Below are positions 4,473 to 41,686 of a stretch of DNA of 42,694 nucleotides, in pieces. The position numbers and the translations under genes are program-made. The notes under the pieces are model-generated. The model saw only the letters and a program-made list of their open reading frames with translations, was not told where the DNA came from and did no database searches. The first letter of the stretch is position 1. The number at the start of each line of letters is the position of its first letter. The DNA is taken from positions 1-42,694 of IMG/VR virus record IMGVR_UViG_2690316224_000012, one strand, 5' to 3'. Source of the stretch: a virus (lineage: Duplodnaviria; Heunggongvirae; Uroviricota; Caudoviricetes).

Positions 4473-5024
4473 TCACTCTCCTTTGATGCGAATGCCTGTT
4501 GCAATGCTGTTTATGATGCTGTCAGTGCATGGGGTAGAAAGCTGGGCATCTCCAGCAATTTTCATGACCTCAACATCTGCATATCGAATACCGAGGTGTA
4601 TCAGACCGGCTATGCCTGACTTAAGCCGAGCATTTTCCATAAATAGAACTTTTGCCCGCTGTTTTTCTGCTTCAAGCTCAACGCGCAGCTTCCCAACCGT
4701 AAGCGCAATTTCCTCGTTCTCCTGGTCGCGGCGTTTGATGTATTGCTGGTTTCTTTCCCGTTCATCCAGTAATGCCAGCACGGTAGCTGGATTGGCTGCG
4801 GAGATGAATTCAGCATTGGCCTGCTGTTCCATTTGGAAATCTTCATCGAAACCGCTTTCAGGATGCGCTCCTTCAATTCTGCAAATGGGAAGATATCCAA
4901 CAACTTCACGATGAATTAGCGCATCACCAGCATCAAATCTCTCCTCTCCATATTCGAGCGACCACACACCACACGTTGCTTTCTCTGCCTTTTCACGCAG
5001 TGCCTGATAGTCAATCTCGCTCAC
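4473..5024 (-). CDS. Ead/Ea22-like family protein
   Basis: N-terminus [17 protein letters not shown] and coiled-coil centre typical of Ea22-like proteins of lambdoid early-left regions. Confidence 0.65.
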   Translation of the reverse strand: MSEIDYQALREKAEKATCGVWSLEYGEERFDAGDALIHREVVGYLPICRIEGAHPESGFDEDFQMEQQANAEFISAANPATVLALLDERERNQQYIKRRDQENEEIALTVGKLRVELEAEKQRAKVLFMENARLKSGIAGLIHLGIRYADVEVMKIAGDAQLSTPCTDSIINSIATGIRIKGE

Positions 5025-5482
5025 TGGCTGCCTCCTTTACGAAGCTGTTCAGCAATACTTACGCATATCTCTGCGCCTCTAATCAGCCCCGGAACGTTCT
5101 TGTTTGGCCCAACTTCACCATCAACAAAATCAATCATCGCGTTACGAGCCATATCCACGCCCTGCGCCCGCACTTCAGCCAGGAAGGCGTCGGTGGCTGG
5201 GGTTCCCTCTACCACTAACCCTACTGGAGCTAGATATTCTTTCATCCCCGCATTCTCCACAGCCAGCGCCGCGCACTTGTCCTCAAGGTTATCAATCGTG
5301 ATTCCAGCAGAACGACACTCCCGCAACGCAGTTTCCAGTTTTGATTCAAGTTCACCGAACTTACGGACAAGATATTCAGCGTTTGTTTCGTTAACCTTTA
5401 AATCTCGTGGGATGCATTTACCTTTCAGAAAACCATCCATCTCAATTAGTGACATTTGTTTCATTTCTTCCCACTCCGCCAC
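5021..5482 (-). CDS. Hypothetical early-left protein (153 aa)
   Basis: ORF translationally coupled (4-bp overlap) to the downstream Ea22-like gene. Confidence 0.55.
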
Positions 5483-6245: not shown

Positions 6246-6734
6246 TTATTTGATAAGAAGTGAAGGTTTCCCAACCTTGAGTTGAGCGCCGGGGATATTT
6301 ATTCCTGCTTTTAGTTGGTGCTTGATTGCCAACTTGTCGGCTTTAATTGTCGTTTCAAACTCAACGTATTCAGGAGGAAGGGCGCTTGAGTCGATGATTT
6401 CTACAGTTTCTGACGGTTTGCGGATTGTTACCTGGTGAATACCTGCTCGAATATTTTTCTTGCCAACCATTTCAAGCGATGACGCTATATATGATTTGAT
6501 GCTGTCAATCTTATTTTGAATTACTGCGGCTCGCTCATTCAGTGACTTTGCCTCTTCCTTGAGGCGTTCAGCATAACCAGATTCATTTTTAATGACGGAA
6601 AGAAGTTGCTCTATTTTATCGGTAAATTCTCCTTCCATGCCTTCTATTGTGTCAGCAATCATCTCTGGTTCTAAATCTGAATCCATCAATTTTGCGTATT
6701 CATTGGCTATTTCATACAGTTTGCTCACTGGCAA
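6246..6734 (-). CDS. Gp157 / Mu Gam-like protein (putative host-nuclease inhibitor)
   Basis: 162 aa with coiled-coil N-terminus and beta-rich C-terminus, immediately downstream of RecT; family assignment from memory. Confidence 0.5.
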   Translation of the reverse strand: MPVSKLYEIANEYAKLMDSDLEPEMIADTIEGMEGEFTDKIEQLLSVIKNESGYAERLKEEAKSLNERAAVIQNKIDSIKSYIASSLEMVGKKNIRAGIHQVTIRKPSETVEIIDSSALPPEYVEFETTIKADKLAIKHQLKAGINIPGAQLKVGKPSLLIK

Positions 6735-7623
6735 CCTCCAGTTTCGCTTTGCATTCTATGTAAATGGCTTGTACGTTCTGCTGCAATTTCATTCCAGATG
6801 TCAGGCGATATGCTTCTGCAAAATATCGCTTCAAATCATCCATGTTTTCTGCCTGAGCCATTTCATCACAAAGAAGTTGTGCTTTATCCATTATTTCCTG
6901 CTGGCGTTTCCGTTCATCTTCGCGGATATCTTCCTCTGATTTGTGCGGCATAACTGGTTCAGTCCACACACCTTCTTCTTCGTTTAGTACGTGAATAGCA
7001 CTATCAAGACGTGATGCCTTAGGCCAATACTTGCTTGCACGCTTTACGACCGTCTTTCGCGCCATCTCATTCCAGTGATTTACCCATGGTCCTTTATCGC
7101 TGAATGCTGCCTTGCTTGTTTTCCTTACAGCCTCAATTTCAGCCAGACTCATCTCTTCCGTTAGATAATCACCTGCTGGCGTCTTAACTGTGCAGTAAAC
7201 GCCAACGATATCACCACGATCACCGAAGGCGTTGTATTTATGGGTTGGTGCTTTATCAAGCCCGTTTGACTCATAGGTATCGTTAGCATGAACAAGTTTT
7301 GCCTGACCCCATGAGATAACACCAGACTCCATTGCAATATGGAGCAATCCCATATAACTGATATCAAGGCACACCATGCCGTCGCGCGGAACCAGATAAG
7401 CCAGTTTGCTTGCAGGGTTTAAGGTGATGCCGATCGCCGCAACGTTGATGATAGCGTTCTGTGCGCTGGTTGGATTTGCCAGTGCCGTTTTAGCCAGGTA
7501 ATCATTTTTCTGGAAATACTGAATTGCAAACTGGCTTTCCTTAGCCCATGTCACCGTCTGTTCAGTCAATGCTCCGCAGAATAACTGCTCTTGCTGTTTA
7601 ACGAATTCAACGATATTGCTCAT
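6712..7623 (-). CDS. recT: RecT-family single-strand annealing recombinase
   Basis: Segment GPWVNHWNEMARKTVVKRASKYWP matches the conserved RecT motif (Rac RecT GPWVTHWEEMAKKTAIRRLFKYLP). Confidence 0.85.
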   Translation of the reverse strand: MSNIVEFVKQQEQLFCGALTEQTVTWAKESQFAIQYFQKNDYLAKTALANPTSAQNAIINVAAIGITLNPASKLAYLVPRDGMVCLDISYMGLLHIAMESGVISWGQAKLVHANDTYESNGLDKAPTHKYNAFGDRGDIVGVYCTVKTPAGDYLTEEMSLAEIEAVRKTSKAAFSDKGPWVNHWNEMARKTVVKRASKYWPKASRLDSAIHVLNEEEGVWTEPVMPHKSEEDIREDERKRQQEIMDKAQLLCDEMAQAENMDDLKRYFAEAYRLTSGMKLQQNVQAIYIECKAKLEVASEQTV

Positions 7624-16539: not shown

Positions 16540-16942
16540 CGCCATAGACGCAATACTCTCACTTCCCATCGACGACAAGTCACCCCACGAAGTCCACCTT
16601 AAAGAACCCAAACGCAGCAAAGCGCAGAATGACCGTATGTGGCCGATGCTGAACGATGTTTCGCGTCAGGTGCTATGGCATGGTCAACGGCTGGCACCGG
16701 AAGACTGGAAAGACCTGTTCACTGCCCTGTGGCTTAAGACCAAAAAACTGGAGCAACGAAGTGTTCCTGGTATCGACGGTGGCGTTGTCATGCTTGGCGT
16801 GCGTACCAGCAAAATGCGAAAGGCCAGCATGACTGAGCTTATCGAAATCATGTTCTGGTTCGGCTCAGAGCGCAACGTGCGGTGGAGTGATGACTCCCGG
16901 CGAGAGTATGAATGGTCACAACGAAAAGGGAAGGCTGCATGA
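16496..16942 (+). CDS. ninB: NinB (Orf) recombination mediator
   Basis: Resembles lambda NinB (...QNDRMWPMLNDVSRQVLWHG... vs ...QNRKLWACLGDVSRQVEWHG...). Confidence 0.8.
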   Translation: MKQIYMLRNEAIRNNAIDAILSLPIDDKSPHEVHLKEPKRSKAQNDRMWPMLNDVSRQVLWHGQRLAPEDWKDLFTALWLKTKKLEQRSVPGIDGGVVMLGVRTSKMRKASMTELIEIMFWFGSERNVRWSDDSRREYEWSQRKGKAA

Positions 16943-17466
16943 CTATCAAATCAAATACGCCGGCACACGACAAGGACTGCTGGCAAACGCCGCTTTGGCT
17001 TTTTGATGCACTGGATATTGAGTTTGGATTCTGGCTGGATTCGGCAGCGAGCGACAAAAATGCTCTGTGTGCTCACTGGCTAACTGAGGCCGACGACGCG
17101 CTCAATTCTGAGTGGGTAAGCCACGGTGCAATCTGGAATAACCCACCGTACAGCAATATCAGACCGTGGGTGGAAAAAGCCGCTGAGCAGTGCATACAAC
17201 AGCGACATACGGTAGTTATGCTTGTGCCAGAGGATATGTCAGTCGGATGGTTCAGCAAGGCTCTGGAGAGTGTCGACGAAGTTCGCATTATCACTGATGG
17301 ACGGATTAATTTTATCGAACCATCGACAGGGTTGGAGAAGAAGGGAAACAGCAAAGGCTCCATGCTGCTGATTTGGCGACCGTTCATCAGTCCTCGACGG
17401 ATGTTTACTACCGTATCCAAAGCGGCATTGATGGCGATCGGGCAGGGCGTCAGGAGGGCGGCATGA
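16939..17466 (+). CDS. Phage DNA N6-adenine methyltransferase (Dam-like)
   Basis: NPPY catalytic motif (IWNNPPYSN); ATG at 16939 overlaps the ninB stop (ATGA). Confidence 0.8.
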
Positions 17467-19576: not shown

Positions 19577-19761
19577 ACGCCACAATTCAAACGATACCAG
19601 AGCTTCTTATCCAGACACGAGGCAATCAGACCGAAGTGGCGAGGATGCCTTCCTGCGCAAGAGGGACAGTGCTCAAGTACAACCGAGACAGCAAAGGCGA
19701 GCGTCACGTAATAGTTAACGGCGTCCTGATGGTCAAACAGGGCAAGAGGGGAAGACGATGA
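19573..19761 (+). CDS. ninH: NinH-like small DNA-binding protein
   Basis: 62 aa; GNQTEVAR...RGTV...IVNGVLMV matches lambda NinH. Confidence 0.65.
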   Translation: MNATIQTIPELLIQTRGNQTEVARMPSCARGTVLKYNRDSKGERHVIVNGVLMVKQGKRGRR

Positions 19762-20246
19762 GCATAAGAGAACTAAACCTCACCAAAGAACAGCACGATT
19801 GGCTGAATGGCTGGCTTGAACTGTGGGGCGCATGGGTTTATTCAGGTCGTCTGGAAAAGCGCATGAGCAGCGTAATAGCGAAGTTCATGGAGAGCGTAGA
19901 GCCGGGAAGAGTTATGACAAGGCCAATGTGTAATGATGATGATGGAATGTTGATTTCTCAGGTCGTCGATTCCGTCATGTACATTGACAAGAAAGCCTTT
20001 GGAATCCTCCTCAGCTACTACGCTCATGGCTCTTCCAAGCACGCCATTGCATCTTACTATCATCGCGTCGCAAGACCTCGCAAGATGTTATGCCGTGGCG
20101 GCGGGCGCATTCAAAAACCATCGCTCGCAACCTGTCGACGGGAAGTTGACGAAACCCTTAATGCCTCGTTGTTTATGATTTACCCGGTTCTGGATAGTGC
20201 GTTTAAAAATCGGAAACGTGTAGAGAAAATTAAACATGTAGCATAG
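19758..20246 (+). CDS. Late-gene antiterminator Q (P22 gp23-type)
   Basis: LELWGAWVYS...RPMCNDDDGMLI resembles P22 gp23 LERWGAWAAN...RPQCCDDDAMII; last gene before the lysis cassette. Confidence 0.7.
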   Translation: MSIRELNLTKEQHDWLNGWLELWGAWVYSGRLEKRMSSVIAKFMESVEPGRVMTRPMCNDDDGMLISQVVDSVMYIDKKAFGILLSYYAHGSSKHAIASYYHRVARPRKMLCRGGGRIQKPSLATCRREVDETLNASLFMIYPVLDSAFKNRKRVEKIKHVA

Positions 20247-20291
20247 AACGTGTTGACATCATTGAGCAAATGAGCAACACTATTGGCATAA

Positions 20292-20333
20292 GCTGCCGTT
20301 AGTGACTCTTAAGTTGCAACGGTGGCTTTTTTT
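20292..20333 (+). terminator. Putative tR'-like intrinsic terminator
   Basis: Stem GCTGCCGTT/AACGGTGGC (two G-U pairs) with a 17-nt loop, followed by T7. Confidence 0.45.
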
Positions 20334-20337
20334 ATTT

Positions 20338-20412
20338 GGGTCAGTCGTATAAAGGTCATTACGGAAGGCTGTTAACCTTCTTATCGTGGTTCGAGTCCAC
20401 GCTGTCCCGCCA
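20338..20412 (+). tRNA. tRNA-Asn (anticodon GUU), phage-encoded
   Basis: Hand-folded cloverleaf: anticodon stem GAAGG/CCTTC with loop CUGUUAA, T-arm CGTGG-TTCGAGT-CCACG, 3' CCA; one acceptor-stem and one D-stem mismatch. Confidence 0.5.
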
Positions 20413-20417
20413 AATAT

Positions 20418-20493
20418 GCTGGTTTAGCTCCAATGGTAGAGCAGTCGCCTTGTAAGCGAATGGGTAGCGGTTCAAGTCCGTTAACCAGCACCA
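20418..20493 (+). tRNA. tRNA-Thr (anticodon UGU), phage-encoded
   Basis: Hand-folded cloverleaf: perfect 7-bp acceptor stem, D-arm GCTC/GAGC with GG loop, anticodon loop CUUGUAA, T-loop TTCAAGT, 3' ACCA. Confidence 0.6.
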
Positions 20494-20735
20494 TAACTGA
20501 GCCGTAGCCACTGGCTATCCTGAATTCATCAGTGATAGTTACGCTGCGGCATTCTACGCATGACCTTCGTGAAAGCGGGTGGCAAGAGGCTGCGCTAACA
20601 ACCTCCTGCCGTTTTGCCCGTGCATATCGGTCACGAACAAATCTGATTACTAAACACAGTAGCCTGGATTTGTTCTATCAGTAATCGACCTTATTCCTAA
20701 TTAAATAGAGCAAATCCCCTTATTGGGGGTAAGAC

Positions 20736-21059
20736 ATGAAGATGCCAGAAAAACATGACCTGTTAGCCGCCATTCTCGCGGCAAAGGAACAAGGCATCGG
20801 GGCAATCCTTGCGTTTGCAATGGCGTACCTTCGCGGCAGATATAATGGCGGTGCGTTTACAAAAACAGTAATCGACGCAACGATGTGCGCCATTATCGCC
20901 TGGTTCATTCGTGACCTTCTCGACTTCGCCGGACTAAGTAGCAATCTCGCTTATATAACGAGCGTGTTCATCGGCTACATCGGTACTGACTCGATTGGTT
21001 CGCTTATCAAACGCTTCGCTGCTAAAAAAGCCGGAGTAGAAGATGGTGGAAATCAATAA
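20736..21059 (+). CDS. S: Holin S (lambda class I, dual-start MKMPEK)
   Basis: 107 aa, essentially lambda S as recalled. Confidence 0.9.
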
Positions 21060-21519
21060 TCAACGTAAGGCGTTCCTCGATATGCTGGCGTGGTCAGAGG
21101 GAACTGATAATGGACGTCAGAAAACCAGAAATCATGGTTATGACGTCATTGTTGGCGGAGAGCTATTCACTGATTACTCCGATCACCCTCGCAAACTTGT
21201 CACGCTAAACCCCAAACTCAAATCAACAGCCGCCGGACGCTACCAGCTTCTTTCCCGTTGGTGGGATGCCTATCGTAAGCAGCTTGGCCTGAAAGACTTC
21301 TCTCCGAAAAGCCAGGACGCTGTGGCACTGCAACAGATTAAAGAGCGTGGCGCTTTACCGATGATTGATCGCGGTGATATCCGTCAGGCAATCGACCGTT
21401 GCAGCAATATCTGGGCTTCACTGCCGGGGGCTGGTTATGGTCAGTTCGAGCATAAGGCTGACAGCCTGATTGCAAAATTCAAAGAGGCTGGCGGAGCGGT
21501 CAGAGAGATTGAGGTATGA
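21043..21519 (+). CDS. R: Endolysin R (lambda-type lytic transglycosylase)
   Basis: 158 aa, near-identical to lambda R as recalled. Confidence 0.9.
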
Positions 21520-21983
21520 GCAGAGTAACCGCGATTATCTCCGCTCTGGTTATCTGCATCATCGTCTGTCTGTCATGGGCTGTTAATCATTACCGTGATA
21601 ATGCCATCGCCTACAAAGAGCAGCGAGATAAAAAAGTCAGTGAGCTGAAGCAGGCGACCGCCACCATTACTGACATGCAGCAACGCCAGCGTGCTGCTGA
21701 TGTACTCGATGCTAAATACACGAAGGAGTTAGCTGATGCGAAAGCTGAAAATGATGCTCTTCGTCGCAAGCTTGATAATGGTGGCAGGGTGCTCGTCAAA
21801 GGAAAATGCCCTGTGCCATCCTCAGCCGAAACCTCCGGCGCCTCCGGCATGGGCAATGATGCCACCGTCGAACTCTCTCCAGTTGCTGGACGAAACGTTC
21901 TCGGTATCCGGGACGGAATCATCAGCGACCAAACAGCACTGAGAACGCTTCAGGAATACATCAGGACGCAATGCCTTCGATGA
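21516..21983 (+). CDS. Rz: Spanin inner-membrane subunit Rz
   Basis: N-terminal TM segment and coiled-coil periplasmic domain; follows R with an ATGA overlap. Confidence 0.85.
21736..21942 (+). CDS. Rz1: Spanin outer-membrane lipoprotein subunit Rz1 (embedded in Rz, +1 frame)
   Basis: Lipobox MVAGC and Pro-rich mature region ([11 protein letters not shown]). Confidence 0.7.
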
Positions 21984-40292: not shown

Positions 40293-41450
40293 TCACTCCA
40301 CCTTCCCATCAAGCCATTCCGCCCACCACTGCATCATTTCTCTGCGCTTATCTAGATACTGAGCATGGTTGTAAATCCCGCGCACAGATCCGCCGTTGGC
40401 ATGTGCAAGTTGCACTTCAATAGCGTCAGCAGGCCATTCGTGCTCGTTCATAATCGTGCTGAATTCATGCCTGAATCCGTGACCGCTTTCCAGACCCTCA
40501 TAGCCGATTTGTTTAATCACAAGTAGCACCGCGTTCTCGCAGATTGGCTTCTTCTTATCGTTGCGTCCGGCAAAAACAAACTCTGATACTGGTTTGGTGA
40601 TTGAGCTTAGCGTAGTGAGAAGTTCAACCACCTGGTCTGACATAGGAACCACATGAATTTTGCGTCCCTTCATCACACTGGCGTCGATAGTGATAATCCT
40701 GTTTTCAAAATCGACGTTCTTCCATTGCATGGAACGAAGCTCTTTCGTTCTTAGGGCTGTGTAGCGTAAAACTTTGGTCGCAATGAGCGATACGATGCTT
40801 CCTGAAAATGTTGCCAGTGCTTTGTTGAATGCCGGGATCTGGTCTGCAGGAAGAAACGGGAAGTTCTTCTTGCGGTATCCTTTCATGGCGTCTGCAAGGT
40901 CAGGTGCCGGGTTATATTTAGCCCTACCAGTGACAATAGCGTAACGGAAAACCTCGCCGCATCTTCTGCGTGCTTTGTTGGCTCGCTCCATTGCGCCGCG
41001 ATCTTCAAATCTGCGGATTACTTCCAGCAGTTGCATCGGCTCAATATCCTGAATTTCAAGGCCGCCGATGATAGGTAAAATGTCGTCATCAAACATTTTT
41101 GCAAGTTCAGTTGCATAGCCTACTGACCAGACTTGCTTCTTGTGCTCGTACCATTCCTTGTAAATCGCACTAAAGGAATTGTTGTTAGACGAAGCCTTTT
41201 TCGCTTTTACCGGATCGATGCCAACCGAGATGTCTTTCCTCGCAGTCCATGCTTTATCCCTTGCCTCCTGCAAAGTCATTAGCGGATATTTTCCTACGGT
41301 CAGGATTTTCTCCTTACCGTCAATCTTGTAGCGAAGCTGCCATACCTTTTTCCCTGACACAGGGACATAAAGGTACAGGCCATTACCATCGAGTAGGCGG
41401 TATGGTTTTTCTTTCGGCTTTGCTGCTTCAATCTGCTTAACGGTGAGCAT
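40293..41450 (-). CDS. intS: Tyrosine integrase, IntS (KplE1/CPS-53) type
   Basis: Track ORF begins with GTG at 41486; ATG at 41450 gives 385 aa starting MLTVKQIEAAKPKEKPYRL..., as recalled for E. coli IntS; adjacent to argW. Confidence 0.85.
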   Translation of the reverse strand: MLTVKQIEAAKPKEKPYRLLDGNGLYLYVPVSGKKVWQLRYKIDGKEKILTVGKYPLMTLQEARDKAWTARKDISVGIDPVKAKKASSNNNSFSAIYKEWYEHKKQVWSVGYATELAKMFDDDILPIIGGLEIQDIEPMQLLEVIRRFEDRGAMERANKARRRCGEVFRYAIVTGRAKYNPAPDLADAMKGYRKKNFPFLPADQIPAFNKALATFSGSIVSLIATKVLRYTALRTKELRSMQWKNVDFENRIITIDASVMKGRKIHVVPMSDQVVELLTTLSSITKPVSEFVFAGRNDKKKPICENAVLLVIKQIGYEGLESGHGFRHEFSTIMNEHEWPADAIEVQLAHANGGSVRGIYNHAQYLDKRREMMQWWAEWLDGKVE

Positions 41451-41611
41451 GGGTAAAAATCCGGTGGGTAAAATTATTTTATCCACTTTTTACCCGTCAT
41501 GGAGTGCGGCTGTCAACGATCTGACGCGAACCATTACGAACTGTGAATCTACGGAAGGCTTGATATTCAGGGGATTTTGCGGACTGGTACGGATGGGAGC
41601 GAACTGATAAA

Positions 41612-41626
41612 TGGTGTCCCCTGCAG
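41612..41626. repeat. attR core (argW 3' end), TGGTGTCCCCTGCAG
   Basis: Identical 15-mer to 1690..1704. Confidence 0.7.
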
Positions 41627-41686
41627 GAATCGAACCTGCAATTAGCCCTTAGGAGGGGCTCGTTATATCCATTTAACTAAGAGGAC
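41612..41686 (-). tRNA. argW: tRNA-Arg (anticodon CCU), argW
   Basis: Reverse complement GTCCTCTTAGTTAAATGGATATAACGAGCCCCTCCTAAGGGCTAATTGCAGGTTCGATTCCTGCAGGGGACACCA folds as a cloverleaf with a CCU anticodon. Confidence 0.9.

Follow-up and report, generated by a model that had tools for sequence, protein, structure and literature searches.

The first genes of the late operon of this prophage encode a tRNA-Asn(GUU) and a tRNA-Thr(UGU), which we consider functional tRNAs whose main selected role is probably to keep late translation going despite a defense nuclease. Published tests on a sequence identical to this tRNA-Thr, expressed from plasmids, have shown that it is a cleavage-resistant stand-in for the host tRNA-Thr(UGU) cut by P2 OLD. 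The same counter-defense would be expected of tRNA-Thr in its native context, and an anti-nuclease role is plausible for tRNA-Asn, judging from its sequence. Publications or annotations already cover the genes, where they lie, and the anti-OLD activity of exactly this tRNA-Thr. For annotation, these are standard phage-21-type tRNA-Asn and tRNA-Thr genes and nothing new is needed. In terms of function, tRNA-Thr should no longer carry the default label of "codon usage". Its constant companion is tRNA-Asn, whose host counterpart is a known PARIS target.

In the window, that is, the whole stretch of 42,694 nucleotides that was analyzed, ARAGORN called three tRNA genes: Asn (gtt), Thr (tgt), and Arg (cct). 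The first two lie on the plus strand, with tRNA-Asn (75 nt) at 20338-20412 and tRNA-Thr (76 nt) at 20418-20493, separated by the 5-nt spacer AAUAU (20413-20417). The original prediction of an Asn-GUU and a Thr-UGU gene at 20338-20493 was thus reproduced by ARAGORN to the exact coordinates. Both genes also matched Rfam RF00005 above its gathering score of 29, with 55.3 bits for tRNA-Asn and 61.5 bits for tRNA-Thr (E-values over the whole window, 2e-9 and 5e-11), and between Q and S a relaxed, permissive local scan detected no further RNA family. As had been predicted, CCA is encoded at the 3' end of each gene. Moreover, both tRNAs carry U33, a purine at position 37, G18G19, and a T-loop UUCRA, as read from the sequence. 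The anticodon arm of tRNA-Asn is GAAGG/CUGUUAA/CCUUC, with the loop CUGUUAA, and its 3' end, ...CCCG-CCA, includes the discriminator G73. tRNA-Thr has G1-C72, C2-G71, and A73, with the ends GCUGGUU...AACCAGC-A-CCA and the loop CUUGUAA. The identity set of AsnRS consists of the anticodon G34, U35, and U36 plus the discriminator G73, and that of ThrRS of G1-C72, C2-G71, G35, and U36; each set is complete in the corresponding phage tRNA. tRNA-Asn is, by its identity set, a predicted AsnRS substrate, and decoding of ACA by tRNA-Thr is implied by the rescue experiments carried out with an identical tRNA. The two stem mismatches previously noticed in tRNA-Asn are U4·U69 (acceptor stem) and U13·U22 (D stem). 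A further mismatch, G27·A43, had escaped the original prediction; it sits at the base of the anticodon stem of tRNA-Thr and leaves this stem with only 4 bp. In addition, position 14 of tRNA-Thr is C instead of the nearly universal A14, which would pair with U8, and across the tRNA-Thr family this position is a pyrimidine, C or rarely U. This oddity lies in the D-loop, which is among the regions that AriB has been proposed to read.

The location between Q/tR' and the lysis cassette, also part of the original prediction, is borne out by ORFs, alignment to phage 21, and leader folding. Upstream of the pair, the plus-strand ORF at 19758-20246 encodes a 162-aa late antiterminator Q of the phage-21 type (full-length tblastn match to phage 21 Q, 95% identity, E 1e-103). 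The late promoter pR' and the start of the qut region follow at 20252-20287 on the same strand, with a -35 element TTGACA (20253-20258) and an inferred -10 element AACACT (20276-20281). We placed pR' by alignment to the phage 21 promoter (AJ237660, 4616-4641) and to the "P R'" and qut features of Sf6. The next element, at 20288-20337 (plus strand), is a terminated short leader RNA that contains tR', recognized by folding and by its homology to the phage 21 "aRNA" (4652-4701), which stops one base before tRNA-Asn. The leader fold reaches -20.2 kcal/mol (z = -6.1), and none of 200 shuffles was equally stable. tR' is formed by a hairpin (20290-20328) and a U7AUUU tail that extends to 20337, and G1 of tRNA-Asn is the base directly after this tail. 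A consensus promoter and terminator scan reported neither pR' nor tR', since the -10 element matches at only 3/6 positions and the hairpin contains G·U pairs and an internal loop.

Downstream of the pair, the plus strand carries a lambda-homologous late leader upstream of S (20495-20735). This homology, detected by blastn with 97.7% identity to lambda 44945-45600, begins 2 nt past the CCA of tRNA-Thr and continues through S, R, and Rz. The lysis cassette S/R/Rz (20736-21983, plus strand) was delimited from its ORFs: the S holin at 20736-21059, the R endolysin at 21043-21519, and Rz at 21516-21983, all three with homologs annotated in Sf6, Kapi1, and lambda, plus an Rz1 ORF (21736-21942) embedded in Rz. 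Kapi1 and HK446 carry a Q of the lambda type, and they are homologous to the window from 20328 on, at the U-run of tR'. With joints at 20328 and 20495, the tRNA pair is a module whose two ends coincide with mosaic recombination joints.

The earlier analogy to tRNA clusters downstream of Q in lambdoid phages turned out to be a close one, as the same pair is present in phage 21, Sf6, SfI, BTP1, Kapi1, and others. Over its 156 nt, the pair is 100% identical to that of HK446 (NC_019714) and Bas106, and 99.4% identical to those of phage 21 (AJ237660), Sf6, and SfI. The only base that differs from phage 21 and Sf6 lies in the spacer, AAUAU here and AACAU there, and the tRNA-Thr of the window is identical to those of phage 21 and HK446. 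Many Salmonella P22-like phages harbor the pair at 97-99% identity, usually annotated. Among 5426 complete E. coli genomes, 369 (about 7%) contain it, and PGAP annotates tRNA-Thr and tRNA-Asn there. Two pattern scans of IMG/VR retrieved 155 loci, and in 120 of them the array consists of Asn-Thr only; arrays such as Asn-Phe-Thr-Arg(UCU), Asn-Thr-Arg(UCU), and Asn-Thr-Gly(UCC) make up smaller groups. Upstream context was examined in the 133 loci with enough upstream sequence. Q is of the 21 type in 100 of these and of the lambda type in 22, and a lambda-type holin follows downstream in only about half. Nevertheless, in nearly all of the 133 the first tRNA lies directly behind a terminator T-run ending TTTTTTATTT. 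Given two Q types, varied holins, and a constant T-run, the conserved feature is the placement immediately behind tR'.

Relatives of the second gene are not always intact. In Salmonella phage L (L005, 881-952), and also in ST64T and ST160, a 72-nt derivative takes the place of the second gene, and its anticodon arm is unable to form a 7-nt loop. The copy in phage L and ST64T is annotated as "tRNA-Leu (TAA)", yet ARAGORN makes no call. This 72-nt gene has either degenerated or encodes a tRNA-like RNA of non-canonical form.

The functional evidence comes from studies of P2 OLD. Cleavage by this nuclease requires a paired CNG motif, and phage tRNA-Thr(UGU) species resist cleavage and rescue the cells (Govande et al., PMC12445682). 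Their resistance is attributed to a shortened anticodon stem together with an altered CNG motif, and the tRNA-Thr of phage 21, with its shorter stem and a C28U/G42A change, "also protected against P2-OLD" (PMC12445682). That the window encodes this "tRNA-Thr21" rests on GenBank AJ237660 and on the substitutions given in the text of that study (PMC12445682). In agreement with the published resistance criteria (PMC12445682), position 27·43 of the window tRNA-Thr is unpaired (G27·A43) and the CNG motif at 28-30/40-42 is disrupted, reading UCG/CGA versus CUG/CAG in host thrU. Over 27-31/39-43, the window tRNA-Thr reads GUCGC/GCGAA, with no paired CNG, and host thrU reads ACUGA/UCAGU, with a paired CNG. 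More recently, the Thr(UGU) tRNA of HK446 was described as providing "strong counter-defense" that restored plaques of OLD-sensitive phages; on its own, Thr(UGU) failed to rescue either lambda or recB-deficient cells from the nuclease (10.64898/2026.07.10.737580). All these rescue experiments used plasmid-expressed tRNAs. Unlike the phage version, overexpressed host tRNA-ThrU gives no OLD protection (PMC12445682; 10.64898/2026.07.10.737580), which indicates that the sequence differences matter and not just dosage. Gly(UCC) is another reported target of OLD, and Asn is absent from the 2026 list of preferred targets (10.64898/2026.07.10.737580). The authors of that study also proposed that the tRNA of HK446 may be a lifestyle adaptation, as HK446 possesses Oad2 as well (10.64898/2026.07.10.737580).

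A variant array composed of Asn, a chimeric Thr(UGU), and Gly(UCC) was found at seven IMG/VR loci (L105, L117, L017, L085, L096, L104, and L115; for example, L105 2417-2650 and L115 1279-1512). The 5' third of its chimeric Thr(UGU) is phage-type and the remainder is host thrU-like. All copies except that of L115 bear G42U/U43C, which reduces the anticodon stem to only 3 bp, and ARAGORN does not call the genes with these changes. The Gly(UCC) gene of the array presumably closely resembles host glyT. This array looks like a case in which host tRNAs that are reported OLD targets were captured and then acquired stem-weakening mutations.

On the other nuclease, PARIS AriB, published work bears on both anticodons. 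AriB cuts Lys(UUU) and Thr(UGU) and, to a lesser extent, Asn(GUU), with the break falling between positions 40 and 41, and all of its targets share U36-A-A-U39 (Belukhina et al., PMC12409363). Cleavage is abolished by U39A and impaired by A41C and U16C (PMC12409363). In T5, Lys, Thr, and Asn tRNA variants jointly neutralize PARIS; the T5 tRNA-Lys was "required" for bypass, and Lys(UUU) is the primary AriB target (PMC11464382, PMC12409363). At positions 36-41, host thrU reads UAAUCA and host asnT UAAUCC, and both have U at position 16; asnT also has a paired CNG in its arm GCGGA/UCCGU (27-31/39-43). The window tRNAs read UAAGCG (Thr) and UAACCU (Asn) at 36-41, both have A at position 16, and their D-loops are CAAUGGUA in tRNA-Thr and AAAGGUCA in tRNA-Asn. 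Hence, the AriB determinants are substituted in tRNA-Thr (G39, G41, A16) and in tRNA-Asn (C39, U41, A16), against U39 and U16 in the host tRNAs. The arm of tRNA-Asn, GAAGG/CCUUC at 27-31/39-43, likewise has no paired CNG, with AAG/CUU at 28-30/40-42. Thus, neither window tRNA matches its host counterpart at any determinant mapped so far for either nuclease, and from these substitutions we infer that tRNA-Asn and tRNA-Thr may evade AriB. The literature searched contained no AriB assays on tRNAs of the window type. ARAGORN found no tRNA-Lys(UUU) in the window, where its three calls are Asn, Thr, and a host Arg(CCU). Since Lys(UUU) is the primary PARIS target, the pair alone should not defeat the characterized B185 system.

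We rejected the idea that phage Asn and Thr tRNAs have universally lost the CNG and UAAU motifs, because P7 and Klebsiella-type variants keep them. Paired CNG motifs are retained in a Klebsiella-type Asn variant and in the Thr tRNAs of P7 and P1, and UAAUCA is retained in the Asn tRNA of P7. Together with the insufficiency of Thr(UGU) alone in some assays and the lack of a Lys(UUU) tRNA in the window, this retention is a main weakness of the counter-defense reading.

Based on these observations, we propose the following course of events. The late operon starts with the two tRNA genes, which follow the Q-controlled terminator tR' directly, and this placement suggests that they would be produced in quantity only after Q antiterminates, that is, in lytic growth. 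If a resident defense nuclease destroys the matching host tRNAs, the phage tRNAs would sustain late translation. tRNA-Thr(UGU) would replace the single-copy, low-abundance host tRNA-ThrU, the primary target of the OLD Toprim tRNase of P2 prophages. Its resistance comes from the shortened anticodon stem (G27·A43) and from the absence of the paired CNG motif needed for cleavage, as experiments on the identical sequence of phage 21 and HK446 have shown. Against related Toprim tRNases such as PARIS AriB, tRNA-Asn(GUU) most likely acts in the same way. It has neither the OLD CNG motif nor the mapped AriB determinants (U16, U39, and the residue at position 41). A more specific version is that the pair constitutes a dedicated mobile counter-defense cassette against the OLD and PARIS Toprim tRNases of P2/P4 elements. 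In this version, tRNA-Asn would be nuclease-resistant, its conserved oddities (C39, A16, no CNG, U4·U69) would be the determinants, and the position behind tR' would serve as Q-gated delivery. We regard this version as possible and give it somewhat less than an even chance.

The original prediction also suggested that the tRNAs compensate codon usage, and this is the best surviving alternative. Here, the tRNAs would raise the supply for ACA and for AAU/AAC and speed up late synthesis, with no defense system involved. We compared the prophage genes with 42 annotated E. coli K-12 genes. ACA occurs 15.3 times per 1000 codons in the prophage (17.0 in late genes and 13.6 in early genes) versus 5.4 in the K-12 genes, a 2.7-fold enrichment. 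This codon is read by the single-copy thrU gene, and the same ACA bias was reported for SfI in 2013, where the case for Asn was "not clear" (PMC3636060). ACA thus lends the suggestion some support, but other data weaken it. HK620, a close relative without tRNA genes, uses ACA 14.6 times per 1000 codons in its early and lysis genes, which matches the early genes of the prophage and makes the ACA bias a general lambdoid trait not tied to tRNA carriage. Rare codons that are more enriched, AGG (5.2-fold), AGA (4.9-fold), and ATA (3.7-fold), have no phage tRNA. Asn has a single isoacceptor, and the excess of Asn codons is only 1.2-fold (45.8 per 1000 in the prophage versus 37.7 in the K-12 genes). 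Codon supply also does not account for the failure of overexpressed host tRNA-ThrU where the phage version protects. Thus, codon compensation is unlikely as the main explanation, and codon supply is better seen as a partial, non-exclusive contributor. At the same time, with ACA about three times commoner than in host genes, the prophage is unusually exposed to loss of tRNA-ThrU, which explains why such a loss hurts phages of this kind.

It is very improbable that one or both genes are decaying, non-functional relics. The suspicion falls particularly on tRNA-Asn, because of U4·U69 and U13·U22, and the second-gene relative in phage L and ST64T (72 nt, no ARAGORN call) has clearly degenerated. 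Nevertheless, the Rfam score of tRNA-Asn is almost twice the threshold, its AsnRS identity set, U33, A37, T-loop, and GG18-19 are present, and its 75-nt sequence is identical in 98 IMG/VR loci. Furthermore, both cloverleaves are maintained by compensatory substitution. Among 23 distinct variants of tRNA-Asn, compensatory double changes occur at 6 pairs and 89.6% of cells are paired; among 26 distinct variants of tRNA-Thr, they occur at 9 pairs, including 5/7 pairs of the acceptor stem, and 94.5% of cells are paired. The covariation score of neither tRNA was reached by any of 500 shuffles, and slid alignment controls remained at or below 54% paired. The mismatches are conserved against this background: U4·U69 is kept in 21/23 tRNA-Asn variants and U13·U22 in 23/23, and position 27·43 is unpaired in 25/26 tRNA-Thr variants. 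As these mismatches are fixed while other stem pairs covary, the stem mismatches of both tRNAs look selected rather than the result of decay. The doubt originally raised about the functionality of tRNA-Asn is thus not supported by the sequence evidence.

Equally improbable is that the tRNAs are kept as RNA-processing signals, with RNase P and 3' processing cutting off the Q-modified leader and setting the 5' end of the lysis transcript. The tRNAs always lie between tR' and the first late ORF, and general tRNA maturation would make their excision from the polycistronic late transcript unavoidable. However, lambda and HK620 produce this late transcript with no tRNA in it, and a processing signal would not need conserved anticodons, identity elements, and CCA.

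The window represents a mosaic P22-like podovirus prophage related to HK620, CUS-3, and Kapi1. An intact tRNA-Arg(CCU) gene (41612-41686, minus strand; ARAGORN cct, 63.4 bits) adjoins the presumed integrase of the prophage, an ORF of fitting size (40293-41486, minus strand, 397 aa), and together they probably mark the argW attachment site and the right prophage end. The first 1248 bases of the window contain a 415-aa ORF labeled sucrose permease in related records, so that the left end probably consists of host or cargo DNA. A further idea is that the pair makes up for a host tRNA gene damaged on integration. This "temperate lifestyle" idea, raised for HK446 in the 2026 preprint (10.64898/2026.07.10.737580), draws on the integration of HK446 and SfI at thrW, a tRNA-Thr gene, but we reject it as the least credible explanation, because the prophage sits at argW beside an intact tRNA-Arg(CCU), a gene of neither the Asn nor the Thr type, the pair occurs at different attachment sites (for example, in Sf6), and genes behind the tR' terminator are poorly placed for expression in a lysogen.

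The minus-strand ORF at 5021-5482 is a homolog of HK446 gp27 (Oad2; 55% identity, E 2e-49). Oad2 is a protein inhibitor of P2 OLD, and an HK75 homolog that is 54% identical does not inhibit OLD (10.64898/2026.07.10.737580). With an inactive homolog at that identity, OLD-inhibiting activity should not be assumed for ORF 5021-5482. A recombination module on the minus strand comprises a Mu Gam-like end-protection protein (6246-6734) and RecT (6712-7623). Regarding RecBCD inhibitors as possible OLD triggers, the window holds no homolog of lambda Gam, Exo, or Bet or of P22/HK620 Abc2, and Gp33, the OLD trigger of HK446, gave only a partial match of 20 residues. In a PADLOC scan of ten accessory ORFs, nothing was found beyond one orphan methyltransferase, the 184-aa plus-strand ORF at 16912-17466 (E 4e-19), which is likely an anti-restriction self-methylase of the nin region.

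Returning to the tRNA pair, several known systems offer a comparison. The pair of phage 21, HK446, Sf6, and SfI is like that of the window in its two genes, their order, the 5-nt spacing, and the position directly after tR'. Besides the single spacer base that sets the window apart from phage 21 and Sf6, the surrounding mosaic differs: the window belongs to a P22-like prophage at argW, in which the pair is preceded by a 21-type Q and followed by a lambda-type S/R/Rz. Transfer RNA genes in a lambdoid late leader are also found in the Stx-phage 933W, where an ileZ-argN-argO cluster lies downstream of Q/pR'; these are other tRNA species, for rare Ile and Arg codons. Related ileX work is cited in the SfI study (PMC3636060). 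With respect to nuclease resistance, tRNA-Thr21 and tRNA-Thr6 share with the window tRNA-Thr the UGU anticodon, the shortened anticodon stem, and the altered CNG motif (PMC12445682). The changes themselves differ, being G30C/C40G and U43A in tRNA-Thr6 and C28U/G42A, G27·A43, and further changes in the window tRNA-Thr. The T5 tRNAs that act against PARIS resemble the window pair in that UGU and GUU are two of the three protective T5 anticodons and in their substitutions at the determinant positions 16, 39, and 41. However, the window tRNA sequences are unrelated to those of T5, and the window has no tRNA-Lys(UUU). The same two anticodons recur together in unrelated plasmid prophages of the P1 family (P7, L007 1425-1578; P1 and D6 are similar). 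As in the window, the Asn(GUU) and Thr(UGU) genes of P1 and P7 are adjacent and belong to temperate enterobacterial phages. They are switched on in lytic growth, but from the C1-controlled operator of a C1-repressed operon and not in a Q/tR' context. The P7 tRNA-Thr is 81% identical to that of the window, yet has a full 5-bp stem and a paired CNG motif, and the P7 tRNA-Asn differs in sequence from the window tRNA-Asn and keeps UAAUCA.
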